DNA from: Candidatus Saccharimonadota bacterium
GTDB taxonomy: Archaea; Micrarchaeota; Micrarchaeia; Micrarchaeales; Micrarchaeaceae
Reading direction: 5' to 3'
DNA: 32,000 bases
Assembly: GCA_963705375.1 (NCBI GenBank)
Contig: OY970071.1
Span: 510,001-542,000, forward strand
Part shown: piece by piece, positions 3,773 through 20,039 of the stretch
Position numbering within the stretch: position 1 is the first letter of the stretch
Layout of the letters: each line of letters begins with the position of its first letter
The notes under the pieces: generated by a model
What the model was told of the DNA's origin: nothing
The model's database searches: none
The model's input: the letters and a program-made list of their open reading frames with translations, nothing else
Translations under genes and position numbers: made by a program

Positions 3773-3780
3773 GTGCAGAA

Positions 3781-4889: not shown

Positions 4890-4894
4890 TATTG

Positions 4895-5578: not shown

Positions 5579-5582
5579 TTAT

Positions 5583-6125
5583 TTGGAAGACAATCCAATG
5601 CGTGCAATAAGGCTTGACAAGGTAGTGGTCAACATAGGCACGGGCGTAGACCAGCAGCAGCACGCGAATGCGCGCAAGCTTCTGGAGCTGATAACAGCAA
5701 GGAAGCCTGCCGACGAGATTTCAAAGAAGCGCATACCAGGCTACAAGACCTCGAAGGGCCAGAAGATAGGCACTTTTGTAACGCTAAGAGGCCAAGATGC
5801 CAAGGCGCTTGCGATAAGGCTGTTCGACGCGGTCAACGACACGCTAGGCACAAGGGCGGTCACGAACAATAGCATAAGCTTTGGAATAAAGGAATACATA
5901 GACATTTCAGGAATCAAGTACGATCCTAAGATCGGCATGATGGGCATGAACGTCAACATTGCGTTCAGGCGTGCAGGTCTGCGCGTGGAATTGAAGAAGA
6001 GGCACAGCGGCAGGGTGCCAAAGTACCACAAGATCATAAATGCTGATGAGCTGCGAGAGTACATAAAGAAGGAATTCAACGTGAGCTGCACCACGACCGA
6101 AGCAGGCAGCGCAGGGAGTCCATGA
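5583..6125 (+). CDS. rpl5: 50S ribosomal protein L5 (uL5)
   Basis: The N-terminus [16 protein letters not shown] is conserved and includes residues upstream of the first ATG, so I keep the TTG start at 5583. Confidence 0.92.
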
Positions 6126-6280
6126 AGGTTAGACAAGAAGAGAAATTCAAGGGCAGAGACGCCAGGAAGTGCAGGTTCTGCGGCACAGCGAGAGGTCTCA
6201 TAAGGGCGCATGGCCTGCAGATCTGCAGAAGATGCTTCCGTGAAGTGGCCAAAGGGCTAGGCTTTGAAAAATACGGTTGA
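6122..6280 (+). CDS. rps14: 30S ribosomal protein S14 type Z (uS14, zinc-binding), 52 aa
   Basis: This gene is absent from the ORF track because it is under 60 aa. My translation is [52 protein letters not shown], with CxxC...CxxC. The ATGA overlaps the L5 stop, and the position between L5 and S8 is canonical. Confidence 0.9.
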
Positions 6281-6284
6281 TGCT

Positions 6285-6665
6285 ATGGACAAGTTTGCTG
6301 ATGCAATAAACAAGATAAAGACTAACGAGCGCATAGGCAGGGGCGAGTGCGTCATAGACTCGACGAAACTCATGCGGACAGTGCTTGACCTGCTCAAGCG
6401 TGAGGCGTACATAGACGGCTACGAGGAGTTTGTCGATAAGAAATTCAAGATGCTGCGGATAAAGCTGGCCAACAAGATAAACAACATCGGCGTCATAAAG
6501 CCGCGCTATGCCGTTCAGTGCGTAGAAATACAGAAATATGAGATGAGGTACATACCCAGCGAGAACTTCGGTGTGCTGATACTGTCAACGCCGAAAGGCA
6601 TAATGACAAACAGGCAGGCCAAGGAGAACAGCACAGGAGGCAGGCTGCTGGCGTACGTATATTGA
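6285..6665 (+). CDS. rps8: 30S ribosomal protein S8 (uS8)
   Basis: The sequence MDKFADAINKIKTNE...GVLILSTPKGIMT...GGRLLAYVY fits S8. The ORF track begins at a TTG at 6264 that overlaps S14 by 17 nt; the in-frame ATG at 6285 is more plausible. Confidence 0.92.
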   Translation: MDKFADAINKIKTNERIGRGECVIDSTKLMRTVLDLLKREAYIDGYEEFVDKKFKMLRIKLANKINNIGVIKPRYAVQCVEIQKYEMRYIPSENFGVLILSTPKGIMTNRQAKENSTGGRLLAYVY

Positions 6666-6672
6666 TGAGAGC

Positions 6673-7191
6673 ATGATCATACAAATACCAACCGGCGTGA
6701 CCGTCGAAGTCAATGACAACGTGATCACAACAAAGGGCAGCTTGGGCACAAACACCAGATCTGCCAACTCCAAGTTTCTGACAGTTTCGAAGAAGGACAA
6801 CACGGTCGTGATAGAGCCCGTCAAGAACGAAAAGCTCGCGAAGAAAGCGATGGAGGCGGAGATGTCAATGGCGAAGGAGATACAGAACGACATGCTCGGC
6901 GTGACCAAGAACTTCGAGATAAAGATGAAAGCGGTCTTCGCCCACTTCCCGATGAGCATAGAGATCAGGGGGGACAAGGTGCTGGTAAACAACCTTATAG
7001 GAGAGCGCAGCCCGCGCGTTGCCAACATACGCACAAATTCGAAGGTAGAGGCGAAGGGGCAGGACGTCAGGGTGTACGGCATAAGCAAGGACGCTGTGTC
7101 GCAGACCGCGGCAAACATAAAGCTTTCGTGCAAGATACGCAAGAAGGACGACAGGGCGTTCCAGGACGGCGTGTACTACGAGATTGAGTGA
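6673..7191 (+). CDS. rpl6: 50S ribosomal protein L6 (uL6)
   Basis: Similarity (IPTGVTVEVNDNVITTKG...FAHFPMSIEIRGDKVLVNNLIGER) and operon order support the call. Confidence 0.93.
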   Translation: MIIQIPTGVTVEVNDNVITTKGSLGTNTRSANSKFLTVSKKDNTVVIEPVKNEKLAKKAMEAEMSMAKEIQNDMLGVTKNFEIKMKAVFAHFPMSIEIRGDKVLVNNLIGERSPRVANIRTNSKVEAKGQDVRVYGISKDAVSQTAANIKLSCKIRKKDDRAFQDGVYYEIE

Positions 7192-7574
7192 TTATTGTGC
7201 AGAAGAAACAACATCCAAAGTTTAACATTCCGAACTTCGGAACATATGGCAGAGGACGCGTAAAGGCCAGATGGCGCAAGCAGCGCGGAATAGACAACAA
7301 GAAGCGCATCAAGAAGGCGCACATGGGCGCATCTCCAAGCATAGGCTACAGAAACCCGGCGCAGCTGCGCGGCCTGAAAAGCGACAACACGAGAGCAATG
7401 CTCGTCCACAACATGAAGGATCTGCAGGCCCTTGTTGAAAGAAAAGACATGAAGGAAGAGGTTGTTGCGACGATCGCAAGCAGGGTAGCAACAAAGAAGC
7501 GCTTAGAGATGACGAAGTTTGCCACGCAGCACAGCCTGCGCGTCACGAATGGTGTGTACAAATGGGTAAAGTGA
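7188..7574 (+). CDS. rpl32e: 50S ribosomal protein L32e (eL32)
   Basis: The motif RWRKQRGIDNKKR...GYRNP is present. The GTG start overlaps the L6 stop (GTGA). Confidence 0.9.
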   Translation: MIIVQKKQHPKFNIPNFGTYGRGRVKARWRKQRGIDNKKRIKKAHMGASPSIGYRNPAQLRGLKSDNTRAMLVHNMKDLQALVERKDMKEEVVATIASRVATKKRLEMTKFATQHSLRVTNGVYKWVK

Positions 7575-8041
7575 AACTCGTAAGAAGGATGGCCGGCCAG
7601 ATCATGGGCAGAGGCCAGAGCAACATCAGGATAAAGCCGAGCGCAATGGAAGACGTTAAGAACGTGCTTACAAGGGACGATGTGCGTGCGCTTGTAAAGG
7701 ATGGAAAGGTATACGCCGAGAAAGAAAAGCACAACTTAAGCCTGTACGGCAAAAAGCTCAGGGAAAAGAGAAAGGAAGGCAGAGGCCGTGGCGCAGGCAG
7801 AAGGAGAGGAAGCGCGAAGTCAAGGATGGGCAACATGGACCACAAGAAAAGGGTCAGGGCCCAGAGGCGCCTGCTCAAGATGCTCAAAGAGGAGAAGACC
7901 ATAAACAACGAGCAGTTCAAGAAGCTCTACGCGCTCGTAAGCGGCGGCACATTCAACAGCAAGGTATCGCTGCTCACCAAGATAAAGAGCACTGGAATCG
8001 AGCTCTCTGATGAGAAGTACGAGAAACTGAGGCATATTTGA
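7562..8041 (+). CDS. rpl19e: 50S ribosomal protein L19e (eL19)
   Basis: The basic repeat region GRGRGAGRRRG and the N-terminus VKLVRRMAGQIMGRGQSNIRI fit L19e, and the operon order is consistent. Confidence 0.92.
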   Translation: MGKVKLVRRMAGQIMGRGQSNIRIKPSAMEDVKNVLTRDDVRALVKDGKVYAEKEKHNLSLYGKKLREKRKEGRGRGAGRRRGSAKSRMGNMDHKKRVRAQRRLLKMLKEEKTINNEQFKKLYALVSGGTFNSKVSLLTKIKSTGIELSDEKYEKLRHI

Positions 8042-8580
8042 TGAGAATCATAAGAGCCAGAAGGAGCAACGCAAGCACGAACTACGCGAAGCGGATAGCT
8101 ATGCTTAAGAGCGGCATGCCCAGAGTAGTGGTCAGGAGAAGCAACAGGCAGGTGCTTGTCCAGCTGATCGGCTACAAGGAGAACGGCGACGTAGTCCTTG
8201 CAAGCGCAAGCTCGAAGGAGCTCAAGACGCTAGGCTGGGAGCCGAGGTGCAACATACCGACAGCATACCTCACAGGCATGCTGCTTGCGAAAAAGGCCAA
8301 GAAGCTTGCAGAGAAAGGAAGCATACTAGACATAGGGCTTTTCAGGCCCGTACAGGGCTCTGTAGAGTTTGCTGCTGCGAAGGGCTCGAAGGATGGCGGC
8401 ATGGCCGTTAAGTTCAATTCGGAATTCGACCCGAACAGGATAAACGGCGCGCACATCGCACGCTATGCAGCTGCGAAGCCAAAGGGAGCGCAGTTCTCGC
8501 TCTATTCCAAATCCGGCTTCGATGTCGCAAAGATCAGTGAAGTGTTTGAGATTGTAAAGAAGAAAATATCGAGTGATTGA
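8041..8580 (+). CDS. rpl18: 50S ribosomal protein L18 (uL18/L5e)
   Basis: The sequence RRSNASTNYAKRIAMLKSGMPRVVVRRSNRQVLVQLI fits L18. The ATG at 8041 overlaps the L19e stop by 1 nt; the ORF track uses a TTG at 8038. Confidence 0.92.
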   Translation: MRIIRARRSNASTNYAKRIAMLKSGMPRVVVRRSNRQVLVQLIGYKENGDVVLASASSKELKTLGWEPRCNIPTAYLTGMLLAKKAKKLAEKGSILDIGLFRPVQGSVEFAAAKGSKDGGMAVKFNSEFDPNRINGAHIARYAAAKPKGAQFSLYSKSGFDVAKISEVFEIVKKKISSD

Positions 8581-9243
8581 TTGCCGTTCAAAAAAAGAGA
8601 CTACAGAGAGCGCGAAAGAGAGACGTTCAACATTGAGGCCTGGGAGCCGAAGACGCAACTTGGGCGAGACGTCAAGTCGCACAAGATAACCAGCGTTGAG
8701 GAGATATTCCACATGGGCAAGCCCATACAGGAGCCAGCCATGATCGATGCGCTTCTGCCAAAGATGGAAAGCGAAGTCATAGAGATAGCGAGCACGCAGC
8801 GTGCGACAAGGAACGGCAGGAAGCAGAAGTTCAGGGCAACAGTGATAGTCGGAGATGGCAACGGCCACGTCGGAGTGGGCGCAGGCAAGGACATAGAAGT
8901 CAAGGCAGCGATCACAAGCGCAGTGATAAGCGCTAAGAGACACATCATTCCCGTTATGCTGGGTTGCGGATCATGGCAGTGCATGTGCGGCACAAAACAC
9001 AGCATGCCGTTCAAGATAGAGGGCAGGTGTGGAAGCGTCGAGGTGATGCTCAAGCCGGCACCAAGAGGCGTAGGCATAGTCGCAAGCGCGCCTGTCAGGA
9101 AGCTCCTGACATTGGCTGGCGTGAAAGACGCGTGGAGCTTCTCAAGGGGCAGGACAAAGGCCAAGTACAACACGATGATAGCAGTCTACGATGCGCTCAA
9201 GAGCATGAACAGGATGAAGAACATTTCAGAGATAAAGAAATGA
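8581..9243 (+). CDS. rps5: 30S ribosomal protein S5 (uS5)
   Basis: The motifs WEPKTQLGRDV...RKQKFRATVIVGDGNGHVGVGAGKDIEVKAAI are present. The start is a TTG, because no in-frame ATG lies near the conserved N-terminus. Confidence 0.92.
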   Translation: MPFKKRDYRERERETFNIEAWEPKTQLGRDVKSHKITSVEEIFHMGKPIQEPAMIDALLPKMESEVIEIASTQRATRNGRKQKFRATVIVGDGNGHVGVGAGKDIEVKAAITSAVISAKRHIIPVMLGCGSWQCMCGTKHSMPFKIEGRCGSVEVMLKPAPRGVGIVASAPVRKLLTLAGVKDAWSFSRGRTKAKYNTMIAVYDALKSMNRMKNISEIKK

Positions 9244-9247
9244 TAGC

Positions 9248-9874
9248 ATGAAAGAGAACGACATAGTGGTTCCAGGAGAAAGGCTTGCTGCGGAAGAGGA
9301 GTACATGCACGGCAGCAACACATACGTGGAGAACAGCAGCATATATTCAAGGCTTCTCGGCAGAGTTGTGATGAATAACGGCAGCATAGAAGTAACGCCG
9401 ATTGCAAGAGAACTGCACGAGATAGACAAAGGCATGATCGTAGTCGGCAGCGTCACAGACTACATGAAGAGCGTCATATTCATAAAGCTCGATACCATAA
9501 GGTCCGGGAACAAGGAGTTCGTCGCACTTAAGGATGGGAAGATAGTGCTGCCGAAGCCCAGACGGCCGGACTTCAGGCACGACAGGATGCAGAGGGGTCC
9601 CCCAATGCGCAGGCCTCAATTCGAGGAGGAGAAGCCGTGCAAGGTTGGCGACACGATGATAGCGATTGTGGCATACAACGACAAAGACGCTTATACGCTT
9701 AACATACAGGCGCCTGAAGCAGGCGTGGCGCATTCAAACTGCGAGATCTGCGGCGGCGAGATGATGCTTGCGGACATGGGACTGCTCGAATGCGAGGTGT
9801 GCAAGCACAGGGAGCGCAGGAAGGTCAGCAGCCACTACGGCAAGCCAGAAGAGATAAGAAAAATGTTTGTGTGA
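9248..9874 (+). CDS. csl4: exosome complex RNA-binding protein Csl4
   Basis: The N-terminus VVPGERLAAEEEY..G..TY, an S1-like middle region, and a C-terminal zinc ribbon (CEICGGEMM...LECEVCKHRERRKVSSHYGK) match archaeal Csl4. Confidence 0.85.
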   Translation: MKENDIVVPGERLAAEEEYMHGSNTYVENSSIYSRLLGRVVMNNGSIEVTPIARELHEIDKGMIVVGSVTDYMKSVIFIKLDTIRSGNKEFVALKDGKIVLPKPRRPDFRHDRMQRGPPMRRPQFEEEKPCKVGDTMIAIVAYNDKDAYTLNIQAPEAGVAHSNCEICGGEMMLADMGLLECEVCKHRERRKVSSHYGKPEEIRKMFV

Positions 9875-9878
9875 TGCG

Positions 9879-10145
9879 ATGGCGAAGTTTATCAAGAACG
9901 AAACGAAGGAACTTCAGCTAGAGTTTGAGAACGGGGACCTTACGATTCCTGACCTGCTAGCAGCAGAGCTGCGCGAGAACGACGGCGTCGAGTTCGCCGG
10001 CGTGACGAAGGACCATCCCGAGACGGGAAAGCCTTTGCTTGTGATAAAAAGCAAGAAAAGCGCGAAGAGCGACCTGGCCAAAGCGATAGAGAAGCTAGAC
10101 AAAGAGTTCGAGGATCTTAAGGACCAGCTCTCAAAGAAGAAATAG
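9879..10145 (+). CDS. rpoL: DNA-directed RNA polymerase subunit L (Rpo11)
   Basis: The pattern LQLEFENGDLTIPDLLAAELRENDGVEFAGVTKDHPETGKPLLVIKS matches the RpoL/Rpb11 fold signature. I prefer the ATG at 9879 to the ORF-track TTG at 9867. Confidence 0.85.
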   Translation: MAKFIKNETKELQLEFENGDLTIPDLLAAELRENDGVEFAGVTKDHPETGKPLLVIKSKKSAKSDLAKAIEKLDKEFEDLKDQLSKKK

Positions 10146-10146
10146 C

Positions 10147-10701
10147 ATGAAGAGCGGATCAAGACTTATCGCAATAGCAACAGGCCCGATACAGGAAAGG
10201 AAGCGCACTATTCTTGTTGGCGTAGTGGCCAGAGATAATAAAATAGAGGGCATACTCTCTGGCAGCATCACAGTGAACGGCGATGACGCCACACAGAACA
10301 TAATCAGAATGATATCAAAGACTAGATTCAAGGAGCAGATAAGGATCATCGCGCTCAACGGGGTCGCAATAGCAGGGCTGAACGTCATAGACGTCCAGAG
10401 ACTGGAGAAAGAGCTTGGAGTCGAAACAATAGTGTTCACCAGAGCGAGGCCCGATCCTAAAAAGCTAATCTACGCGCTGAACGCATTCGCAAAAAAGAAC
10501 GGAATCGATCCAAATGAGAGGATAGCGCTGGTGAGGGCACAGGCCAGAAGGAAGCCGGAGCGAGTTGAAGGCTTCCACATCCAATGCCTGCTGAAGAAGT
10601 ACGAGCTCAAAGCCTTTGCAGGGCAGAGCTATGAGATGCTGCGCATAGCTCATCTCATAGCGAGCGGCGTCGACACAGGGGAATCAAGGGGCAGGATATG
10701 A
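10147..10701 (+). CDS. DUF99/UPF0215 family protein (endonuclease V-like fold)
   Basis: The sequence IAIATGP...LVGVVARDNKIEGILSGSITVNGDDATQNIIRMI...IRIIALNGVAIAGLNVIDVQRL fits the UPF0215 pattern, which is commonly found next to csl4/rpoL in archaea. Confidence 0.75.
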   Translation: MKSGSRLIAIATGPIQERKRTILVGVVARDNKIEGILSGSITVNGDDATQNIIRMISKTRFKEQIRIIALNGVAIAGLNVIDVQRLEKELGVETIVFTRARPDPKKLIYALNAFAKKNGIDPNERIALVRAQARRKPERVEGFHIQCLLKKYELKAFAGQSYEMLRIAHLIASGVDTGESRGRI

Positions 10702-11237
10702 ACAAAACGGCAGAAGCCAGAACGCAAATGCCATCAGGGAAAAAGGCAAGAGCTGCGGCCATAATTTTGTGCGTGATGATTGTTTCTGCTGCGGTCATAG
10801 TGTCGCTTCACATGCAGGGTCTGCTGTTTTCCGGTCCTGCGCCAACTATCCAGATAACCATACTTAACAAAAACGGGGAGCAGCACTACAGTGTATTCCA
10901 TGCAACAACACCACCTCAATTGACAGAAGGCCTGATGAACTACACATTCCATAATTGCACACATAACCCGACATTATGCGCTAACGATATCGTAGGTGAG
11001 CTATTCTCTTTTGGCTACACCGCCAACCAATGCTTCTGGATGAAGAACACTCCAGAAGAACTGATTCAGGCATGGATTTCTGAGAACGGAACAGTGACAT
11101 ACACATACGATGGAATACCGTACAGCACTAATATTATCTGCGCAAATGGCTCTGCTGTTCTTGAGCTAGGAAAGAATCTCGGCATCCCACTCCAAACGGG
11201 AGATGTAGTAAGGCCAGAACCGACTGCTCACACATAG
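10698..11237 (+). CDS. DUF192 (COG1430) family protein with an N-terminal membrane anchor
   Basis: One N-terminal TM helix (AAAIILCVMIVSAAVIVSL) is followed by DUF192-like blocks (ATTPPQLTEGLMN, CFWMKNTPEELIQAWISENG, AVLELGKNLGIPLQTGDVV). The ATGA overlaps the DUF99 stop. Confidence 0.65.
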   Translation: MNKTAEARTQMPSGKKARAAAIILCVMIVSAAVIVSLHMQGLLFSGPAPTIQITILNKNGEQHYSVFHATTPPQLTEGLMNYTFHNCTHNPTLCANDIVGELFSFGYTANQCFWMKNTPEELIQAWISENGTVTYTYDGIPYSTNIICANGSAVLELGKNLGIPLQTGDVVRPEPTAHT

Positions 11238-11284
11238 GCTTAGTATCATTCAAACTCACAGTGGCTGATGCTCCCTAGCTAGGC

Positions 11285-11292
11285 TTTTATAA
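11285..11292 (+). promoter_or_regulatory. putative TATA box of the SRP RNA gene
   Basis: TTTTATAA lies about 25-30 nt upstream of the predicted 5' end (about 11314). Confidence 0.45.
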
Positions 11293-11313
11293 TTTGAGAT
11301 GCACAGCATATAT

Positions 11314-11575
11314 GTGGCAGATAGGCGGGAAGCCAAGGGTCTCCCATCCGCAAATCCCTTTTGGCGGGCCAATGCTGACAGCGTGCATCCGTGCGCTTGC
11401 AGAACTGTACTTAAGCGTTGAGGTTCTGCCTTAGGTGATGGCATATTATGCGAACCAGGCCAGGCCGGAAGGAGCAACCTTAAACACAATTTTGCCATGC
11501 TCTTAAGATACAGGACTAAGCAGATGTGCAGCACTTTGCATGCGTTAGGCTGTGCAATGCCAGCTTCTGCCACAT
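11314..11575 (+). ncRNA. signal recognition particle RNA (7S/SRP RNA), about 260 nt
   Basis: The conserved helix-8 core CCAGGCCGGAAGGAGCAACC (11461-11480) is present with a GGAA tetraloop at 11467-11470. The 5' GTGGCAGA (11314-11321) pairs perfectly with the 3' TCTGCCAC (11566-11573), closing the molecule. The 5' GGCGGG...CCGC is an Alu-domain-like hairpin. The ends are approximate (+/-10 nt). Confidence 0.8.
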
Positions 11576-11582
11576 TTAAAAG
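11574..11582 (+). promoter_or_regulatory. putative TATA box of the tRNA gene
   Basis: ATTTAAAAG ends 26 nt before tRNA position 1 (11608). Confidence 0.4.
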
Positions 11583-11607
11583 CATTGCAGCACAAACCAA
11601 TACACAT

Positions 11608-11733
11608 GCTGGAGTCGCCTAGTGGTAAACTCTTAGGAGGCACGTAGCAACCTGAAGCTCACTAAAGGGCGGCAGCCCGCTAAGCTGTTTGGCCCGTATA
11701 GGGCCTCCGTGGGTTCGATTCCCACCTCCAGCG
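11608..11733 (+). tRNA. intron-containing type-II tRNA, best read as tRNA-Ser(GCU); predicted 39-nt intron in the D-loop (11627-11665)
   Basis: - The acceptor stem GCTGGAG/CTCCAGC is perfect, the discriminator is G, and no CCA is encoded.
- The T-arm is GTGGG-TTCGATT-CCCAC.
- A long variable arm GGCCC-GTATA-GGGCC is present.
- After removing 11627-11665 the D-arm becomes GCCT-AGTGGTA-GGGC.
- The anticodon arm is GCAGC-CCGCTAA-GCTGT, with the anticodon GCT at 11679-11681.
- The mature length would be 87 nt.
- Caveat: position 33 would be C rather than the near-universal U. Confidence 0.7.
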
Positions 11734-11781
11734 CTCATGCTTAACAATGACAGTATCCGGCTAGGTCAGGTGGAGTTCCAA
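11723..11781. repeat. direct repeat copy 1: tRNA 3' end core (CACCTCCAGCGCTCATGCTTA) plus the shared right arm
   Basis: 11723-11743 matches 13212-13231 and 13929-13948 apart from a 1-nt indel. 11744-11781 (AACAAT...AGTATCCGGCTAGGTCAGGTGGAGTTCCAA) matches 13232-13276. Confidence 0.85.
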
Positions 11782-13231
11782 GTGAGTTTCGGAGAGCAGG
11801 CACATCGGTACGACACCACCCATGCACTACATTAGCAAAGACGACAATGAGCGCTACAATAACATATACTATGCCTTCGGAAGCCAGCTAGCAAGTTTGA
11901 AGAAGGCGTTGGCAGAGCCACAAAATGGGCCTGCCCGATACGACACTATACGCCTACACATACCTTATATTCGCAGTATTTCTTTTAGTTTATCTGCCAG
12001 TGCGTCTCTTGCAGCTATCGTCGCATCGATATCTTCTTGCTCCACTGCGATTGGACCGTAACTGTTATTGCGGTTATTAGGCAGTCTTATTTCCATTCTC
12101 AATACTGGCTGACCCGCTACAACAAATCCGTCGGGTATGGTAACTTGCTTATCAGCACTATCCCAGTAGTATCTTGATCCCCATTCAGTGGCTCCGGACA
12201 TCAGCATATCCTTTGTTACTAATAGAGGAGTATAACGAGTGTGTGAGTCTGAACCACCTTTTAAATCATAGTTGGACCCTACTGAATTAATTTTGAATGA
12301 TACTTCGAAGATTCGGCCATTATACGTGAATGACGGAGGGGGCTGCAATGTATTATACTCTAACGTAGTATTGAATGTCTCGAATATTTGCGCATAAGGC
12401 GTAAGATCTATGTTGAACCAAAGCGAATCTACATTTGTGTATGTTACATAAACGATTGCACTATACAAAGCAGCGTGAGTATCCATAGACGTGCTCACCT
12501 CAGCCTCCACTTCATTTCCTACGTATGCTTGATTTATGCCAAGCACGTATTTTTCGTCGCATTTGGTGATATTAATACTTGTCTTGAAGAAGCTTGTCCC
12601 TAATGCTTCATATTCAAACCCACCGTCGAACAGCCGGGGGCTCCCATCGTTTTCTGCCTTACGCGCCTTTTCCATGATCATTGATGTGAGACTAGGTTTG
12701 TTTCTTGCATTAGCATCTGCACCTAACATCGCCACTGCCAAACCCATAATGCCATGTTCTTTAACAGTTTCGTCAAACAATTTCTCTGTAGGCTTCTCAG
12801 AACCAGCCAGTGTTCCGGTTTCAAACTTTCTTAATGCCGCGTCTACAGCGTCCAAGGTATCTAACACCACACCACCACTATGTTCGCTGGTGTGCAGCTC
12901 AAGCGGCCGCGATACTTCAGTAAAAGATTCCGGCATCTTTGAAGGTCGCTCTACAAATGTTTTCTGAGTGCTTGTCATTAAATCCACTAAGTAAATATTA
13001 GCACATTTCCAGATACTTATGCGCTTTGTTTTTGAGCAATTTATTTGCGAAAACTTGTGAAAATGTAACCTACCTCCGTCCGCCCAGTACGTGCGCTTCG
13101 CTTACGCAGGCGCAACAGCAACAACAGCACCATGAAGCTCAAAAAAGCATGGCACGATACAGACCGTCATAGTGCGATAGCGTCAGGGCACGGCGATTTA
13201 GCGTCGGTGTTCACCTCCAGCGCCATGCTTA
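11744..13231. mobile_element. cassette A: putative integrated, integrase-less element (about 1.5 kb) carrying one 340-aa ORF
   Basis: It is bounded by core copies 1 and 2. It starts with the shared right-arm sequence, ends with the shared about 140-nt left-arm sequence, and is lower in GC than the flanking core genes. Confidence 0.55.
11965..12987 (-). CDS. hypothetical protein, 340 aa, orphan (helical N-terminal third, beta-rich aromatic/Ser-Thr-rich C-terminal part)
   Basis: This is a long uninterrupted ORF in an AT-richer segment and the only substantial ORF between att-like cores 1 and 2. I recognise no family motif. Confidence 0.65.
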   Translation of the reverse strand: MDLMTSTQKTFVERPSKMPESFTEVSRPLELHTSEHSGGVVLDTLDAVDAALRKFETGTLAGSEKPTEKLFDETVKEHGIMGLAVAMLGADANARNKPSLTSMIMEKARKAENDGSPRLFDGGFEYEALGTSFFKTSINITKCDEKYVLGINQAYVGNEVEAEVSTSMDTHAALYSAIVYVTYTNVDSLWFNIDLTPYAQIFETFNTTLEYNTLQPPPSFTYNGRIFEVSFKINSVGSNYDLKGGSDSHTRYTPLLVTKDMLMSGATEWGSRYYWDSADKQVTIPDGFVVAGQPVLRMEIRLPNNRNNSYGPIAVEQEDIDATIAARDALADKLKEILRI

Positions 13232-13276
13232 ACAATATCTGATGATAGTATTCGGCTAGGTCAGATGGAGTTCCAA
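13074..13276. repeat. direct repeat copy 2: shared left arm, core, and shared right arm
   Basis: 13074-13231 aligns with 13790-13948; the last 66 nt (13166-13231 versus 13883-13948) are identical by eye, and the remainder is about 75% identical with indels. 13212-13276 aligns with 11723-11781. Confidence 0.85.
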
Positions 13277-13278
13277 AT

Positions 13279-13542
13279 TTACTTATAAGCTTGGCCACGC
13301 CACGATATGTCTGTTATCTCTATGCTCTCAGAATTCCAGAAAACTGCATAGAGTATGCGTATGTCTCCTATCCGCACCCTATATTCGCCCTCCCTTCCTT
13401 CCAACTTCTTGATGTCGTATAGCTCTGTAGGAACGGCATCTTCTTCAAGGGCCTTCAGCAACGCCTTCACACGTTTCTGATAATGAGAAGGCATCTTCAA
13501 TACAGACTTCTCAGCCCTTTTGGCGACTTTTATCAGATACAA
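13279..13542 (-). CDS. relE: type II toxin, RelE/ParE superfamily (87 aa)
   Basis: The sequence EGEYRVRIGDIRILYAVFWNSESIEITDISWRGQAY matches the RelE/ParE pattern Y.R.R.GDYR..Y.........I..I.HR..AY. The size fits, and the gene lies 4 nt downstream of a small partner ORF. Confidence 0.8.
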   Translation of the reverse strand: MYLIKVAKRAEKSVLKMPSHYQKRVKALLKALEEDAVPTELYDIKKLEGREGEYRVRIGDIRILYAVFWNSESIEITDISWRGQAYK

Positions 13543-13546
13543 AAGA

Positions 13547-13744
13547 TCAGCCCATCTTAGCTGTCAAATCCCTTCCACTTACCCACTTGCCTTTTGATAT
13601 CTCCTTCTTCCCCGCTTCCATTGCCTTGATATCCCTCTTAGTGGGTTTAACCGTAGACAAGACCATGGCCTTAAGCTTCTGGATCTCAACTTCTATCTGG
13701 CTGAGCTTCTTTAGCATGACCGTCTGCTGCTTTGAGAACACCAT
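13547..13744 (-). CDS. putative antitoxin (archaeal RelB-like, 65 aa)
   Basis: It sits immediately upstream of the RelE-like gene on the same strand. It is a small protein with a coiled-coil N-terminus, and its C-terminus (EAGKKEISKGKWVSGRDLTAKMG) resembles archaeal RelB-type antitoxins. Confidence 0.65.
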   Translation of the reverse strand: MVFSKQQTVMLKKLSQIEVEIQKLKAMVLSTVKPTKRDIKAMEAGKKEISKGKWVSGRDLTAKMG

Positions 13745-13789
13745 GATTACATAGCGACTCTTAAAGATATTAATTGTTTGCTTTTAACT

Positions 13790-13948
13790 CTCCTTCACGC
13801 CCAGCACGTGCGTTCGCTTGCGCAGACACAACAGCAGCCTGCAGCATCATGAAGCTCAAGAGAGCATAGCAAGATACAGACTGTCATAGTGCGATAGCGT
13901 CAGGGCACGGCGATTTAGCGTCGGTGTTCACCTCCAGCGCCATGCTTA
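13790..13948. repeat. direct repeat copy 3: shared left arm plus core (CACCTCCAGCGCCATGCTTA at 13929-13948)
   Basis: See copy 2. The sequence to the right of 13948 (TAGAACCGTTCC...) is unrelated to the right arm, as expected for a chromosomal flank or a different element. Confidence 0.85.
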
Positions 13949-14230
13949 TAGAACCGTTCCAGCACAGAAAGATACTGAAGATGAGTCGAGAGGGTGTCAA
14001 ACACTACAGCGTTTTTACCATATTCAGTACTCACAGTTAAGAAATTCTTCTGGAATTCACCCTCGAAATTATGCCATTTGTTACATTTGAGACAAATATA
14101 GGGCAATATGTATCATTTGTATAATAATGCTAATATACTTCATCGTGCAAAATATAATTTGACGAGAAATGAATATGCAGATTGAGTGCTAAAAGGATTA
14201 GATTAGCGCAACTTAGTTATCAGTGAAAAT

Positions 14231-15610
14231 ATGCAATTCGACAATAAGGACTTCCAAACCAATAACATTCAACCGCATTCGCTACTAAGGACAGGATCCG
14301 CATCAGATCTGAGCACTATTATTTCAGAAAAAATATGCTTTGAGATGCCTGTAGGTGTAAATTTCGAATCGAGTTCGTGGAAAGGAAGGCGCACGGCCCA
14401 GCAGTGGGATTTACAGAATGAAAAAGCAAAAACCTTGGGTATTCTTGTTGAAAAGGGATGGTTGGCAGCAGAGCCATTGGACGGCGACAGCATAGTGTAT
14501 CCTTCCAGGCAAGACGTCTTTAGGGGCGTGAATATCACAGTGCCTGGAACAGAAAATCCTGTCAAACAGTATCTTCTTGCGCGCACAATAGGCAAACCAA
14601 AGGCTGCTGCATATGAAAATAACGAAGGGGAAATCCCGCTAGTTACAGGATTGTGCCTATTCAGTAAATGCATGGCCTCCGCAATTACTGAGGATGATGA
14701 GACAGAATCCCTGGTGCTTTCATCTTCGCCAATAACAAAAAGAGTATCGCACATTGAAGTTAATAAGAATCCGTCCCTTTACGAGCTAGTAAGCGTTGCC
14801 CAGTTAGCATCTCTTATACTTGATATTGCAGACAACAACAAGGTCTCTGTGCACTTCAGCATACCTCGTGTTGAATACTACTTCTACATTTTGGATGCAG
14901 TGAAAGACGGCTACATGAGTAAGGAACAGGCTTCAGAGTGGTTCAAGTGCGTGGATGAGAGGCATGCCACTGTTGAGAGCATGCTTGTGAATACCATATG
15001 CAAAGTGAATAGCGAGGTAAACTTTGTTCACTGGGATCCTCTTGCGAAGTTGGGTGATTACATAGCCAATAGTGTCGAGGAGTGCAAGCAACCAGACATA
15101 GATGAGGCATTAGATATACTTGCCGATGGCGACAACGACAGCATATGGCGCTCCGCTGCAGTGAAAGAGACGATTATGGCGGGCAAATCTCCATGGATTG
15201 CGCTTGCCGACGTAAGCTGGACGATCCCATATATGGAGATAGGCACTGGTGACAAATTAGGTCTTGCAGTTGAGACTTATGATGAACAGCGACTATTAAC
15301 CGATGCAGCATCCCTGTCCAAGAAGATTCTAGCTGAGATGAATGTTGAGAAAAAGCTGAAGATGGCAGCAATATACAGCCATCCGTCTGTTGCGACAATC
15401 ACAGATGATGGAGGGAATAATCTGAAGTATAACCCAAGGTTATATCGTTCTGATGTGGATGTTACCGATCCATCCGAGATACGTGAGGTAATAAATAAGC
15501 TGTCTGTGCTTTACGGTGTAGAAGTAGTCCTGGATGGCCCTTCACAATCAGAAACAGTCTTGAAGGATCCTTCAGCCTACCAGGCGCTGTTGAGGAAAGG
15601 AGAAGACTAG
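14231..15610 (+). CDS. hypothetical protein, 459 aa, orphan; first gene of a two-gene unit with DUF917
   Basis: This is a long ORF in the lower-GC island. Its stop (TAG, 15608-15610) is 1 nt before the ATG of the next gene. I could assign no motif, and it has no TM segment or signal peptide. Confidence 0.7.
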   Translation: MQFDNKDFQTNNIQPHSLLRTGSASDLSTIISEKICFEMPVGVNFESSSWKGRRTAQQWDLQNEKAKTLGILVEKGWLAAEPLDGDSIVYPSRQDVFRGVNITVPGTENPVKQYLLARTIGKPKAAAYENNEGEIPLVTGLCLFSKCMASAITEDDETESLVLSSSPITKRVSHIEVNKNPSLYELVSVAQLASLILDIADNNKVSVHFSIPRVEYYFYILDAVKDGYMSKEQASEWFKCVDERHATVESMLVNTICKVNSEVNFVHWDPLAKLGDYIANSVEECKQPDIDEALDILADGDNDSIWRSAAVKETIMAGKSPWIALADVSWTIPYMEIGTGDKLGLAVETYDEQRLLTDAASLSKKILAEMNVEKKLKMAAIYSHPSVATITDDGGNNLKYNPRLYRSDVDVTDPSEIREVINKLSVLYGVEVVLDGPSQSETVLKDPSAYQALLRKGED

Positions 15611-15611
15611 C

Positions 15612-16649
15612 ATGAAAATCCGTTTGACAAACGACATTCTGGCAGATATGATAGTTGGCTCTTCAATATATTCCACGGGCGGCGGCACTGAGTTATCTTT
15701 GCAACGAAAGCTGCTGCAGGGGTTGAAAGGCAACGCCAAGCCAAAGCTTATTTCGATAGACGAGCTGAAGGATAGTGATTATATCTGTACGGCATATAGT
15801 GTCGGAGCAACTGCAAACACAGGCACAGATATTACGCTCGTGCTAAGGAGCGCGATGGAAGAGATAGAGTCGCTCGTAAATAAAAAAATGTCAGCAATAT
15901 TTGCAGGCGAAACCAACATAGACGCACGAGTGTTTTTATTGGCAAGCAGTATGCGACTTCCGGTAGTGGATGGTGATGCTACTGGAGGGAGGGCAGTGCC
16001 CCTGATCCAAATCGATAACTTCAATGTGCTCGGAAAAAAATCCCTTCCACTGTGTGCCGTAAACTCGGATAATGAGAGAATTATTCTGAAGGATGGCAAC
16101 TTCGACGATGCAGAAAATGAGGTAACGAAGCTTGCAGCCAAATCAAAGGGCTCAGTAGGCGTAGTAGATCATTCTGTAAGCGTAGCAGATGCGAAGAAAG
16201 CGTTGACTCTTGGTATCTTCAAGCGTTCATTGGAAACTGGAAAGTTCATAAGAGAAAATCGGAAGAAGCTAGAAAAAGATGTATCGCCTTTAGTAACGCG
16301 CATAAAAGGAAGAGTTGTCATAGAAGGCACTGTGTCTGACGTTTCATTAAGCAGATCTGCGCGATTTCTGGAAGGACACTACACAATCCAGGGCAATAAT
16401 GGCAAACAACTCAAGGTCTATGTCCAGAATGAGAATATTGCGTGCTGGTTGGATGGTAGGATGGTCATAGCACCGCCGGATTCTATAATAACAATAGACT
16501 TGAACGAACTGATAGGGGTGCACAACAGCAAAATCTATAAAGGGGAGAAAGTGTGCGTTGTGGGCAAAAGGGCCTCTAAACTCTGGAGGACCGCTACGGG
16601 CATTAAAGTGTTCGGCCCAAAAACATTCAAATTGAAAAGTTCACTCTGA
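15612..16649 (+). CDS. DUF917 family protein
   Basis: DUF917 hallmarks are present: STGGG near the N-terminus, LPVVDGDATGGRAVP (compare PVVDxDxxGRAFP), and C-terminal YVQNENIACWLDGRMVIAPPDSI...VCVVGKRASKLWRTATGIKVFGPKTF. Confidence 0.8.
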   Translation: MKIRLTNDILADMIVGSSIYSTGGGTELSLQRKLLQGLKGNAKPKLISIDELKDSDYICTAYSVGATANTGTDITLVLRSAMEEIESLVNKKMSAIFAGETNIDARVFLLASSMRLPVVDGDATGGRAVPLIQIDNFNVLGKKSLPLCAVNSDNERIILKDGNFDDAENEVTKLAAKSKGSVGVVDHSVSVADAKKALTLGIFKRSLETGKFIRENRKKLEKDVSPLVTRIKGRVVIEGTVSDVSLSRSARFLEGHYTIQGNNGKQLKVYVQNENIACWLDGRMVIAPPDSIITIDLNELIGVHNSKIYKGEKVCVVGKRASKLWRTATGIKVFGPKTFKLKSSL

Positions 16650-16746
16650 ACACCGGTTGGCGATAAGACCTGACTCATGTGAGCGTAAACGTAACTTAAA
16701 GTACTGTAGGTCTGAGGAATACGTGAGCCAGAAGCAGCTAGACGAA

Positions 16747-17604
16747 TCATACGAAAGACCGCAGTTTTTTTGCCACTGCGTTTTCCTGGCGACCTATGTC
16801 CTCCCTGACCTTTTTCGTAACGACAGATATGCCCTTCTCTACCTTGTCCCACACCTGCACAAGTTCGTCCAACATCTTGCCGTTCTCCACGAGCTTTGCG
16901 ATCGCGGCTTCTTCCTTTTCGCTTTTTAGCATATTGCGGTTTATCGCGGAGAGCTTTTTGATCCTCTTTCCATAGCTCTTGAAGTTGCCAAAAGTCGCAC
17001 GCTCGACTTTATCGAATCTCCAGTTCCAGTTGCACACGTCCTCTATTGCTGATGCAAGCACATCCCGCCGCAACGGCACAGAGGTTATGTCTTTGAATTC
17101 ATCGAAATCCTTTGCGCGCGCATCGGAGTATATCCTAAACAGCTCTCGGGATATGCACTTGGCAGCGTCAGCTCCGATATAGCTCTCACCCTTGAATGAG
17201 CTGCGGTCATACTCTTCTCTGAGCTTGCTGTCCCTCAGCACAGCATACGCCTCGTTTATCTTTTTTGTCCGTTCTTCAGCGCCAGCTTCCTTGCTAACGT
17301 CAGGATGATACTTCTTGACGAGCCCGTGGTATGCCTCTTTTATAGCAGAGATGTCTGCATTGTACTTTATGCCTAGAATCGCGTAGTAGTTGCCGGTCTT
17401 GGGCCTTCGTAGCTCTATTCCGAACCTTTTCGCTTCCGCTTCGAGCTTGCTCTCTGATTCCTTGCTGCTGGCCAACAGTTTTTCCAAGTTTCTCCTGCGC
17501 CTGGAAGCGTTGAATTCCCTGAATGCGCCAGCAATATCCCCGAATATCTTTGCGGAAGGCATGCGATCATATGGTTTGTGTATGCATCTGCCAACACCGT
17601 GCAT
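16747..17604 (-). CDS. J-domain-containing protein (DnaJ-like, no zinc-finger or C-terminal DnaJ domains)
   Basis: The central J-domain is NYYAILGIKYNADISAIKEAYHGLVKKYHPDVSKEAGAEERTKKINEAYAVLRDSKLREEYDR, with the HPD motif. The flanking regions are unassignable. A TATA-like TGATATATAC lies about 35 nt upstream of the ATG at 17604. Confidence 0.8.
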   Translation of the reverse strand: MHGVGRCIHKPYDRMPSAKIFGDIAGAFREFNASRRRRNLEKLLASSKESESKLEAEAKRFGIELRRPKTGNYYAILGIKYNADISAIKEAYHGLVKKYHPDVSKEAGAEERTKKINEAYAVLRDSKLREEYDRSSFKGESYIGADAAKCISRELFRIYSDARAKDFDEFKDITSVPLRRDVLASAIEDVCNWNWRFDKVERATFGNFKSYGKRIKKLSAINRNMLKSEKEEAAIAKLVENGKMLDELVQVWDKVEKGISVVTKKVREDIGRQENAVAKKLRSFV

Positions 17605-17689
17605 TATACACTATTCGGCCGGAAAGCCAAAGCAGCAAGTATATATCAGAAAGGGCTTTAATATCTGCACGTGAAGGTAAAATGATGCC

Positions 17690-18769
17690 ATGGATGAAAA
17701 TGAACGCATGATAAACTACCTAAAAGAAAGAGTAGTCCTTGTAAACAAGAAGCTAGAGGAATCGGTGAGAGTGAAGTCTTCTGACAAGTACATATCGAAC
17801 CTGCTTGGAAAAAGCGGGTACGTTTACCATCACAAGGCGATAGATAAGGGCATACTCGATCCTGCAAACTACTTGCTCGGAATGGGAGGGAAAAGAGTGC
17901 GCGCAGTCCTGATGCTGTCAGTTATAGAGGCGTTCGGCAAGAACCCCAACGACTATGTCGAATTCGCCCTAGTTCCTGAAGTCATACATAATGGAACGCT
18001 GATTCACGATGACATAGAGGACAGTAGCAACATGAGAAGGGGCAGCGAGGCAGTTCACATCAAATATGGTTTGGACATCGGTGTTAATCTGGGAGATTTC
18101 CTATTCTTCTTCCCGATGGTTGCGCTGATAGACAGCAAGAAGCTTTCAATCAAGACCAAGAACAGGGCAGTTTCGATGTATGTCAAAGAGATGCTGAAGC
18201 TCGCATTAGGTCAGGCAATCGACCTGGCGTGGCACAACCAGAGTGTTGAGCTAGAAAGCATAACAGAAAAGCAGTATCTTCAGACCGCGGCAAACAAGAC
18301 AGGCTGCACATTCAGCATGGCTGCTCAGCTTGGGGGCATTGTTGCTGGCGCAGACGACAGAACCGTGAGGGCGCTGGACAGGTTTGGAAAGGCTCTTGGC
18401 ATAGCGTTCCAGCTCCAAGACGATGCGTTGAATATATCGGAGAGCATCCTTGCAGAAAACAAGGGAGGGATAGGAGACGACATAAAGGAAGGCAAGATCA
18501 CTCTCATGGTCGTACACACGCTGAAAGTTGCAAGTGAAAAAGACAAAAAACGGCTTATAGAAATATTAAGAATGCACACTAGCGACAGAAAGGTCATAGA
18601 AGAGTGTGTGGCCATATTAAAGAAATATGGTGCGGGAGAGTATGCCAAAAAACAGGCAGATGGATTGGCAAGAGAGGCATGGCTCTCTGTAAAAGGAGTA
18701 CTGCCAAAGTCAGAAGCCACGAATTGGATAGAATGGCTCACTAAGTATGCAGTATCTAGAAATGTGTAA
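17690..18769 (+). CDS. idsA: polyprenyl (geranylgeranyl) diphosphate synthase
   Basis: The first Asp-rich motif is LIHDDIEDSSNMRRG and the second is FQLQDDALNI. The length is typical of trans-prenyltransferases. Confidence 0.88.
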   Translation: MDENERMINYLKERVVLVNKKLEESVRVKSSDKYISNLLGKSGYVYHHKAIDKGILDPANYLLGMGGKRVRAVLMLSVIEAFGKNPNDYVEFALVPEVIHNGTLIHDDIEDSSNMRRGSEAVHIKYGLDIGVNLGDFLFFFPMVALIDSKKLSIKTKNRAVSMYVKEMLKLALGQAIDLAWHNQSVELESITEKQYLQTAANKTGCTFSMAAQLGGIVAGADDRTVRALDRFGKALGIAFQLQDDALNISESILAENKGGIGDDIKEGKITLMVVHTLKVASEKDKKRLIEILRMHTSDRKVIEECVAILKKYGAGEYAKKQADGLAREAWLSVKGVLPKSEATNWIEWLTKYAVSRNV

Positions 18770-18795
18770 CATACACCATGGTTTGATATATCCGA

Positions 18796-19791
18796 GTGAC
18801 TCGAATGCCGCTTCGTGTTATAGAGCTTAGGCAGCTACTCCAGATACTTGCCATGTTCACGATCGTCCAGTTTTTCGGCCTGCTTCTTGCGACACAGCTG
18901 TTCACAGGCGTAGCGTACCAGCAGGTGCAGAGCGTACAGGTGATATCGACATATTCTGACAATCTGATATTCTATGTCGCGTACATCGTGGTGGTTTCGC
19001 TCATAATGCTGCTAGTTTTTAAGGTTTATCGCGGCAAGCGCCTGTTCACGGTGTTTGAAGCAGTTGTTGTGTTCATACCTGCATTTTATGTGTTCCTTAT
19101 AGGCATAGCGTCGATATTCGGCGATGCGTATGGTACGCTGTTCTATGGCACGAATGCGACTGCGTATGTGATTGCGCTTGCGCTCGCCGCGCTCCTGGTG
19201 ATAGCAAAGAACAAGATCCCTAGCCTCAGGAACGTGACTGCGCTGATAGCGAGTGTTGGCGTAGGGTTGATACTTGGCATAACGTTTGGCTTCTTTGCGG
19301 CATACGTGTTCATGGTGCTGCTGGCAGTGTACGATTTCGTTGCGGTGTTCATCACCAAGCACATGGTCGCGCTTGCGAACGTTGCCATGGAAAACAACTT
19401 ATCGCTTATGATCATGGTGAACGAAGCGAAGGCCGTTCCGGCGAGCAGCCTCAACAAGAGAGAGCTGGCAGAGTACAGGAAAGAAAAGCCTGTTTTGGAG
19501 AAACACGCAGGCATAATGAAAGAGCTTGCTGAGAAAGACATGGTGCCGGTCGCTGCGCGCTCCGCACTCGGGACAGGAGATCTGGCAGTCCCGTTGATGC
19601 TGGCTGTAGCCGCATACAAGATAAATCTCAGTTTCACGCCAAGCCTTGTGGTCGTTATGGGCAGCATGCTAGGCATTACACTCAACATGCTGGTACTGCG
19701 CCGCTACAAGAGGGCACTACCGGCCATTCCGCTACTGCTCTTGGGAATAAGCATCGCTCTTGGAATCTATTTTGCAGCCATGAGACTCTGA
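18796..19791 (+). CDS. presenilin/signal-peptide-peptidase-like intramembrane aspartyl protease (A22 family)
   Basis: It is a polytopic membrane protein with the YD motif (AVYDFVAVF), the GxGD motif (LGTGDLAVP) and a PAL-like motif (ALPAIP). The ORF-track start is a GTG; an in-frame ATG at 18805 is an alternative start. Confidence 0.85.
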   Translation: MTRMPLRVIELRQLLQILAMFTIVQFFGLLLATQLFTGVAYQQVQSVQVISTYSDNLIFYVAYIVVVSLIMLLVFKVYRGKRLFTVFEAVVVFIPAFYVFLIGIASIFGDAYGTLFYGTNATAYVIALALAALLVIAKNKIPSLRNVTALIASVGVGLILGITFGFFAAYVFMVLLAVYDFVAVFITKHMVALANVAMENNLSLMIMVNEAKAVPASSLNKRELAEYRKEKPVLEKHAGIMKELAEKDMVPVAARSALGTGDLAVPLMLAVAAYKINLSFTPSLVVVMGSMLGITLNMLVLRRYKRALPAIPLLLLGISIALGIYFAAMRL

Positions 19792-20039
19792 GAAGCTGGC
19801 AAGCGGCGAACTTTGGTCAATAACTATCAAGCACTAGGTTGTGGATAGGAAGTGTGTAAATAAGATACGACGTTCTACACCTTATTCTGAAAATGAACTG
19901 TAACATGCGTAGAAAAGGGCGGTGCAGTAGTTCAGGCGTGCTGTGTAAATGCGATAGAAAAGATAACATACCGAACTAGGGAGCGCACTCGATGCAGCCC
20001 ATCAGGTTTCTAGACACTGCCAAGGCACCTAGGCAGATC

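Follow-up and report, generated by a model that had tools for sequence, protein, structure and literature searches.

A small gene-swapping hotspot at the 3′ end of a micrarchaeal tRNA-Ser(GCU) gene: tandem att-flanked units without recombinase genes and their probable serial integration

We have analysed a 32,000-nt stretch of contig OY970071.1 (positions 510,001–542,000; the window in what follows), from an archaeon placed in the Micrarchaeaceae, in which two short units lie in tandem directly behind a tRNA-Ser(GCU) gene. One unit carries a 340-aa orphan open reading frame (ORF) and the other a RelE toxin–antitoxin (TA) pair, and both are bounded by direct copies of a short core that starts inside the tRNA. 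Upstream of the tRNA lie a signal recognition particle (SRP) RNA gene and a ribosomal-protein operon. In its general type the locus is familiar: it is a small hotspot of gene swapping rather than a novel cassette system. Its features are, in order:

11312–11575, + strand: archaeal SRP RNA, which marks the conserved chromosomal side of the locus
11608–11733, + strand: tRNA-Ser(GCU), the putative integration target, with an insertion of ~38 nt at about 11630–11667
11723–11743, + strand: core copy 1 (attL-like), CACCTCCAGCGC-T-CATGCTTA, consisting of the last 11 nt of the tRNA and trailer
11744–11797, + strand: right arm of unit 1; 11744–11781 is common to unit 2 and 11764–11797 to the third unit of the relative L006 (see below)
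11965–12987, − strand: cargo of unit 1, the 340-aa orphan ORF, function unassigned by family searches
13066–13211, + strand: left arm of unit 1, aligning to 13790–13928
13212–13231, + strand: core copy 2, CACCTCCAGCG-CCA-TGCTTA
13232–13276, + strand: right arm of unit 2, matching the right arm of unit 1
13279–13542, − strand: toxin of unit 2, RelE/ParE family of the archaeal RelE type (Pfam ParE_toxin, E 2.2e-7)
13547–13744, − strand: putative antitoxin of unit 2, 65 aa, assigned from its size and its position immediately upstream of the toxin
13790–13928, + strand: left arm of unit 2, aligning to 13066–13211
13929–13948, + strand: core copy 3 (attR-like), followed by the unrelated sequence TAGAACC...
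13949–16745, no strand: variable low-GC segment (GC 0.44) between the array and a conserved DnaJ gene

The sequence CACCTCCAGCGC occurs exactly three times in the 32-kb window, always on the + strand, at 11723, 13212 and 13929, where an initial annotation had placed three direct cores, and (T)CATGCTTA follows every copy. Estimated from dinucleotide shuffles, the number of matches expected by chance is 0 for the 20-mer core, for a 23-nt right-arm motif and for a 32-nt left-arm motif alike. The core is a direct repeat of 20–21 nt made up of the last 11 nt of the tRNA, then CCA or CTCA, then TGCTTA; in the copies borne by the elements the 11 tRNA-derived nucleotides are followed by CCA-TGCTTA. 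It had been described as taking 12 nt from the tRNA: the core does begin within the tRNA, but the tRNA gives 11 nt. A proposed check on whether the three cores have a common boundary was answered in the affirmative on the left side, which is the same in all three. To the right of the core, ACAAT is found at junctions 1 and 2 and TAGAACC at junction 3. Measured from core to core, unit 1 spans 1,489 bp and unit 2 717 bp, and the GC content of the units is 0.45–0.46 versus 0.49–0.51 in the flanks. The layout is thus the one originally claimed, namely tRNA and core, then right arm, cargo and left arm, core, right arm, RelE/antitoxin and left arm, core, and an unrelated flank.

The arms are shared between the junctions in a regular manner. 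The right arms (11744–11781 against 13232–13276) match at 35/38 positions with one 7-nt indel, in agreement with the ~40–45 nt previously noted to the right of copies 1 and 2. The left arm, shared by junctions 2 and 3 over ~140–165 nt, gives 143/159 matching positions when aligned together with the core (13066–13231 against 13790–13948). Its final 66 nt, core included, are identical and its distal part is ~83% identical; of the earlier description, the ~140 nt of sharing and the identical 66 nt stand, but the figure of 75% for the distal part does not. An internal direct repeat, GCGATAGCGTCAG / GCGATTTAGCGTCGG, lies at 13174/13193 and again at 13891/13910. This repeat, announced as GCGAT(A/TT)AGCGTC(A/G)G, is indeed present in both left arms, but is kept just loosely, as GCTACAGTGTCAG and GCAATTTAGCTTCGG, in the arm of L006. 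Together the arms and core copy 2 (13066–13276) form an attP-like internal junction of ~210 nt. With ~165 nt on one side of the 20-nt core and 45 nt on the other, an attP-form junction of this kind resembles a lambda-type attP in size.

We consider it hardly credible that the arms are something other than recombination sites, such as a non-coding RNA, a decayed copy of the tRNA or the fragments of an integrase gene partitioned in the manner of the Sulfolobus spindle-shaped viruses (SSV). A structured RNA was rejected given fold z-scores of −0.36 to +0.39 on both strands, all within about 0.4 of zero, and no Rfam match at E≤1. The idea of a decayed tRNA draws on a 22-nt motif, AGCAnCnTGAAGCTCA(nnAAAG), which both left arms (13126–13147 and 13843–13858) have in common with the D-arm insertion of the tRNA (11646–11667); it is collinear, at 77 nt from the core in the tRNA and 86 nt in the arms, and marginally significant (p ~0.005). 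The motif is missing from the terminal arm of L006. The global similarity of left arm and tRNA is not significant (z ~1.5), so that the motif is all that the two share, and this candidate was also rejected. The case for a gene fragment can point to a 63-aa ORF with a CxxC motif (13915–14106, − strand), which begins in the right flank, crosses core 3 into the left arm and stops 14 nt past the core; no family match was obtained for it, and its presence is probably a matter of chance. On reading the sequence we saw no ORF conserved in both left-arm copies, no long ORF runs across the arms and the short ORFs there differ between copies: the plus-strand ORF of left arm 1 is broken by a stop in left arm 2. 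Since the length of the core differs by 1–3 nt between copies, no reading frame is kept across it, and integrase gene fragments of the SSV type were likewise rejected for want of a conserved ORF. A conserved structured RNA or a gene fragment had been named in advance as a finding that would speak against recombination, and neither is present in these folding, Rfam and ORF analyses. At the junctions we found no attC-like palindrome or conserved inverted repeat. A possible further, degenerate arm to the right of core 3 (13961–13978) was dismissed, since it matched one arm with p ~0.03 and the other not at all.

No tRNA is called in the window by ARAGORN, or by Rfam at the gathering threshold, because of the ~38-nt insertion in the D arm. 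Once a D-loop segment of ~38 nt is deleted, ARAGORN calls tRNA-Ser(gct) (in hundreds of deletion variants), and the ortholog in a second relative, L003, passes the Rfam tRNA model with 42.7 bits, so the tRNA reported beside the array is real. Inspection of 11608–11733 by hand gives a 7-bp acceptor stem, a T arm, a long variable arm and an anticodon loop with GCU; the minimum-free-energy fold retains the acceptor, anticodon, long variable and T arms, and the 3′ end is complete through the discriminator base. The insertion is either a non-canonical intron or an expanded D arm. It is kept in three Micrarchaeota lineages (the window, L003 at 11422–11545 and L006 at 10394–10271 on the − strand); most sequence changes in the tRNA between lineages fall within it, while a helix UUAGG/CCUGA (CCUAA in L003) stays paired. 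The neighbouring SRP RNA matches the Rfam Archaea_SRP model with 83.7 bits (E 1.7e-18), under the gathering score of 96.5 bits. A Bacteria_small_SRP match covers 11422–11519; this SRP RNA, which is divergent, does reach the bacterial small or large SRP models. A mechanically called ORF at 11256–11600 (− strand) overlaps the SRP RNA and is almost certainly spurious.

The cargo of unit 2 has the arrangement of a type II RelE/ParE system, a toxin of the RelE/ParE fold with a small antitoxin gene immediately upstream, the two genes being 4 nt apart. The toxin matches a RelE-like PHROG (E 4e-14) and PDB entry 1wmi_A, P. horikoshii PHS013 (E 5.8e-13), and the 65-aa putative antitoxin shows a weak similarity to 1wmi_B, the partner chain (E 0.27). 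An AT-rich TTAATAT lies ~25–31 nt upstream of the antitoxin ATG, within unit-specific DNA, and is kept in L006; the TA unit appears on this basis to carry its own promoter, and unit 2 is apparently a complete and functional TA operon. Viral relatives of this cargo are just distant RelE genes.

The 340-aa ORF of unit 1 has no match in Pfam, PHROGs, PADLOC, NCBIfam or PDB sequences and no viral relatives were found for it; its AlphaFold2 model (pLDDT 42.8) is too poor to search with. The only homologs, P0002 and P0009, are 48–51% identical and 487/516 aa long, and they sit in ordinary chromosomal contexts without arms. Full-length homologs (~500 aa) are located at L016 9236–10786 and L002 1693–3156, beside nuo genes, TBP and SRP54. 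In L016, which comes from the same sample as L006, the homolog is split into pieces of 235 and 261 aa and several neighbouring genes are fragmented too, which looks like frameshift noise in the assembly.

The claim that neither unit encodes a recombinase holds: no recombinase domain came out of a Pfam scan that covered, in the 32-kb window, the ORFs of the units and, the ribosomal-protein operon aside, the main ORFs of ≥110 aa. An nhmmer profile scan of the window and ~120 kb of related loci found no cores or arms, degenerate ones included, beyond the known copies. Genome, metagenome and viral collections were scanned with exact patterns, in collections that hold no att sequences of this lineage; there the core pattern had no match, the pattern of the tRNA 3′ end had none in the metagenome and viral collections, and the arm patterns gave, in viral contigs, nothing or one chance match inside a phage ORF. 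A BLAST search with the attP-like junction against phage and plasmid collections was also without a match. These scans and searches, suggested by the initial annotation as a way to find arm copies elsewhere and alleles with an empty site, turned up none of either.

Comparison with relatives shows how the locus varies. L003, a metagenome-assembled genome labelled Candidatus Micrarchaeota and the more distant of the two main relatives, is ~77% identical over window 9000 to 11735. The homology stops at 11735, two bases past the tRNA 3′ end (11733), and beyond the tRNA L003 has unrelated genes, no CATGCTTA and no units. The second relative, L006, was reached via its RelE homolog and is syntenic on both sides of the array (78% identity at window 3701–11217 and 76% at 16745–19797), with synteny resuming only at 16745. 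In window orientation L006 reads SRP RNA, tRNA-Ser, core CACCTCCAGCG-CCA-TGCTTA, right arm, RelE, antitoxin. Its TA unit is 90% identical to window 13212–13806, and the 79 nt of 13212–13290 (core copy 2, right arm and the first bases beyond) are 86% identical to L006 at and after the tRNA end. After the TA unit, the left arm is reduced to its first ~13 nt, joined directly to a right arm of the unit 1 type, 91% identical to window 11764–11797 (the right arm of unit 1 and L006 9673–9643 are 91–93% identical). A third cargo, a 176-aa ORF in the opposite orientation, then lies between this right arm and a left arm with core; the unit ends in the proximal part of the left arm (89% identical over 55 nt to the proximal ~55 nt of the left arm of unit 1) and a core CACCTCCAGCGC-TTA-ATGCTTA, after which come unrelated genes and then DnaJ. 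The same junction from tRNA to TA unit is found in five further contigs from other samples (L009–L013), and unit 1 is absent from these and from L006. At one and the same core position, the left neighbour of the TA unit is therefore the tRNA in the relative but the left arm of unit 1 in the window. Run ERR11594402 yielded contigs identical to the window, L001 and L008. The latter, a unitig, corresponds to window 11705–13195; the identical repeat of 66 nt accounts for its right end, and its left end implies a branch in the graph just after 11734, behind the tRNA, which could stem from a relative present in the same sample or from a variant of the junction.

When the window and L006 are compared at third codon positions, RelE is 91.9% identical and the antitoxin 84.8%, against 52–68% for eight flanking housekeeping genes. 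At the level of sequence, this excess over the flanks demonstrates that the TA unit entered, or was exchanged, well after the lineages diverged, and it points to an independent or recent acquisition at the same site. The units might alternatively have been produced with no site-specific recombinase at all, by local duplication, unequal crossing-over and homologous exchange through the SRP RNA/tRNA flank and the arms. The 100% identity of the proximal 66 nt of the left arms within the genome suggests gene conversion, and the SRP RNA and tRNA, 93–97% identical between lineages (93–94% for the SRP RNA in both L006 and L003), could anchor such exchange. That identity is, however, equally high to L003, which has no units, and so reflects functional constraint rather than a recombination tract. 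Duplication cannot give rise to unrelated cargo, with either of two left contexts the boundary of the TA unit coincides exactly with the 20-nt core, and the triplicated segment begins inside the tRNA, as att sites do; we judge an origin of this kind quite improbable. The more specific possibility of a purely local segmental duplication, named by the initial annotation as what would refute its reading, is opposed by the different unit content of the relative and the low synonymous divergence of the TA genes.

Taken together, a repeat that starts within the tRNA, an internal junction of attP form, constant boundaries, unit content that differs between relatives and a unit that arrived late argue for serial integration at a tRNA att site. 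On balance, and with some reserve, we favour the view that the 3′ end of tRNA-Ser(GCU) is a hotspot at which serial site-specific integration has left non-autonomous, att-flanked mini-elements. Two successive integrations of this type had been proposed, and both the repeat anatomy and the unit content of the relatives support them. Site-specific recombination at the tRNA 3′ end would have placed the two units there in succession, with an att core composed of the last 11 nt of the tRNA and ~9 nt more, and each would have brought its own attP-like site of left arm (~60–165 nt), core and right arm (~40–45 nt); this would account for the triplicated core and for the intact-attP look of 13066–13276. 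As the units contain no recombinase, they are best regarded as non-autonomous att-flanked elements, an archaeal counterpart of bacterial cis-mobilizable elements (CIMEs). For further movement an integrase would have to come from outside the units, whether from a related autonomous element, from a virus or plasmid, or from some other place in the genome. A tyrosine recombinase binding arm sites is the most likely agent because the arms are long and asymmetric, and we lean, no more firmly than for the hotspot itself, to tyrosine integrase activity supplied in trans as the most likely mechanism of origin. From the anatomy of the locus we infer the class of recombinase, circular intermediates and any present-day mobility, and the units may in the same sense be open to further mobilization in trans.

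Several observations weigh against this view. In the collections scanned we found no integrase that could act as helper and no autonomous relative, nor any circular junction or empty site, and the core and arms were found in the genome, metagenome, viral, phage and plasmid searches solely at this locus, in two lineages. The block of identity within the tRNA is 11–12 nt, which is short for a tRNA-targeting attP, and in the arms neither dyad symmetry nor conserved, repeated sites of the arm type are obvious. The 340-aa ORF lacks ~165 N-terminal residues that are present in its homologs. All six relative contigs, from six samples, show one fixed arrangement, with no polymorphism seen within populations. 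Finally, the internal junction of L006 (~9725–9700 in minus-strand reading; cf. window 13785–13806) has lost the left arm and the core, and with the truncated cargo of unit 1 this means that at least part of the array is fossil; some units are probably already decaying. The right breakpoint of that junction falls exactly at the boundary of core and right arm, and a retained CTCTCCGTTCGCCCA loosely resembles the core; the junction could be the product of a deletion, or of recombination at a pseudo-core.

Most of these observations would be expected if each unit were the immobile fossil of a once much larger virus, plasmid or island that lost its integrase and most of its genes and kept its two att ends and one accidental gene, with decay and occasional homologous exchange explaining the differences between species: the shortened ORF, the internal junction without left arm and core, the arrangement fixed in six contigs and the failure of the scans to find a helper or free form all suit it. 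Degenerate elements with scattered partial tRNAs are, moreover, common in tRNA-linked islands (bioRxiv 10.1101/2020.12.28.424599). Such decay would, however, have had to trim three independent units each to arms and one module while leaving both arms ~90% intact, the TA unit arrived recently in comparison with the split of the lineages, and unit 2 is an apparently functional, complete TA operon with a TATA-like AT-rich sequence upstream. An exclusively fossil origin is a real possibility, though a doubtful one beside serial integration. As for deletion of the kind that gives rise to CIMEs, the truncated cargo hints at it, and exact-pattern scans of collections that lack this lineage contained no autonomous relative with the same att site.

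At the opposite extreme, the array could be a dedicated cassette platform, in which units are excised as small circles and re-inserted at the tRNA site by a dedicated integrase acting in trans, a function like that of integrons but with a tRNA att core and double-stranded arm sites as its basis. Three unrelated cargos, in two species with differing order and content, do lie between the same arms and core, every unit is sized as a single module and the internal junction resembles an attP. Yet there are just three unit types at a single locus, which do not require a dedicated integron-like platform; no integrase adjoins the array or occurs in the scanned ORFs of the 32 kb, no attC-like palindrome was detected (fold z-scores ~0), the orientation of the cargo is mixed and the TA unit appears to have its own promoter. 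The truncated ORF of unit 1 and the core-less junction are signs of decay. We regard such a platform as unlikely, and it is to the same degree unlikely that a tRNA-anchored platform of this sort, made of promoter-bearing units of 0.7–1.5 kb with an arm-core-arm site of ~120–230 bp, exists in Micrarchaeota and perhaps in other DPANN archaea. The picture of separable units with single-module cargo thus holds in so far as neighbours and content differ in the relative, but the decay does not suit a tidy cassette platform.

Beyond the array, the segment 13949–16745 holds a 459-aa orphan gene tightly coupled to a gene matching the S-Me-THD family in Pfam (DUF917-type). The only database match of the 459-aa protein is itself, and neither it nor the 176-aa protein of L006 gave anything in family (Pfam, PHROGs, PADLOC, NCBIfam) or PDB sequence searches. 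In the place of this segment L006 has a Metallophos_2 gene and a 210-aa ORF. The nhmmer scan found no core, arm or att remnant at the distal end of the segment, which is probably older island material; the whole interval from tRNA to DnaJ is variable (window 11734–16745) and has a GC content of 0.44–0.46 versus 0.49–0.51 in the flanks. On the other side of the locus, between a DUF192 gene and the SRP RNA (window 11217–11275), L006 alone carries an insertion sequence (IS) of ~1 kb (11566–12584) together with an adjacent 233-aa ORF. The IS, whose 309-aa transposase has an rve domain, is bordered by terminal inverted repeats of 29 nt and by a perfect direct repeat of 16 nt. This transposase, unrelated to the units, is the sole integrase-type domain in the 20 kb of L006; as an ordinary IS absent from the window it was rejected as the mobilizing enzyme.

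In DPANN archaea, which depend on hosts and whose genomes measure ~1 Mb, the way in which accessory genes are gained is poorly understood. The present locus shows a tRNA-linked hotspot at base-pair resolution, with single-module units added and swapped between related lineages, among them a recently acquired TA pair. Standard island finders miss such elements because they require an integrase. If the cognate integrase were found, the ~210-nt arm-core-arm junction would be a ready substrate for testing archaeal site-specific recombination and would help to recognize further miniature elements without recombinases. Should the platform exist after all, it would mean integron-like shuffling of accessory genes in ~1-Mb genomes otherwise devoid of obvious gene-transfer machinery; if there is no integrase, the locus is an example of ordinary island decay.

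With respect to known systems, elements of the IMEX type (integrative mobile elements exploiting Xer) use the host Xer recombinases at dif, a dyad site of ~28 bp. The target here is a tRNA 3′ end and, set against the dif architecture, there is no such dyad around the core, so this class was rejected. In the SSV-type ‘gene capture’ said to have been described by She et al. in 2001, the integrase gene is reportedly split by integration into a tRNA. As here, the target is an archaeal tRNA, direct repeats of part of that tRNA flank the insert and captured elements cannot excise. The arms in the window, however, encode no integrase fragments and no ORF is conserved across the core; with no ORF spanning the arms and a core that varies by 1–3 nt, a provirus with a partitioned integrase was rejected as well.

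Integron gene cassettes have been reported in archaeal metagenome-assembled genomes (PMC9668308). The likeness lies in tandem single-module units of 0.5–1.5 kb, repeated recombination sites, TA cargo and the lack of a recombinase within the units. In contrast to integrons, no IntI, attI or Pc lies beside the array, which adjoins a tRNA and the SRP RNA, and the units are bounded not by attC imperfect palindromes but by a direct repeat derived from the tRNA, with asymmetric arms. Integron cassettes are mostly promoterless and in one orientation, whereas the TA unit appears to bear a promoter and the cargo orientation is mixed. An integron cassette array was therefore rejected; the Pfam scan of the 32 kb, the inverted-repeat check and the fold z-scores bear out the initial annotation, which saw no IntI and no attC-like palindrome. 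Its further suggestion of a different cassette system is not warranted, since the anatomy fits tandem accretion and recombinase-less att-flanked derivatives, the CIMEs. The P. horikoshii RelE–RelB pair (PHS013/PHS014, 1wmi) is a parallel for the cargo only, through the toxin match and the 65-aa upstream partner.

Against tDNA islands of the Islander type (PMC4383910), the locus shows an intact tRNA at one end, direct repeats of the tRNA 3′ fragment at the distal ends, variable presence and foreign composition; an integrase gene inside the element was not found by the Pfam scan of the units and main ORFs. The tycheposons of Prochlorococcus are tandem or degenerate elements split by partial tRNAs (bioRxiv 10.1101/2020.12.28.424599). 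They and the tDNA islands share with the present array the stacking of elements at the same tRNA, separated only by a partial tRNA copy, and in tycheposon islands, too, older remnants are pushed deeper into a variable, low-GC island of a small-genome host with few classical routes of gene transfer. Unlike tycheposons, which are 10–20 kb long and encode a recombinase, of the tyrosine or rarely of the serine type, and in many cases replication genes, the units here include no mobility gene, and their conserved parts are the ~40–165-nt arms. Tandem accretion at tRNA att sites and att-flanked CIMEs without recombinases are established for the ICESt1/ICESt3 family (PMC5704250). The resemblance consists in attL/attR flanks without integration, recombination or transfer modules, in the tandem position at a tRNA 3′ end and in an array built by a newcomer integrating at a resident's att site. 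Here the host belongs to the DPANN archaea and the units are much smaller (0.7–1.5 kb, one module each); with no autonomous element or integrase related to them known, descent by deletion and mobilization in cis are putative. By analogy, then, the tRNA-linked islands of Prochlorococcus are the closest ecological parallel, and CIMEs with tandem accretion are the closest described class.

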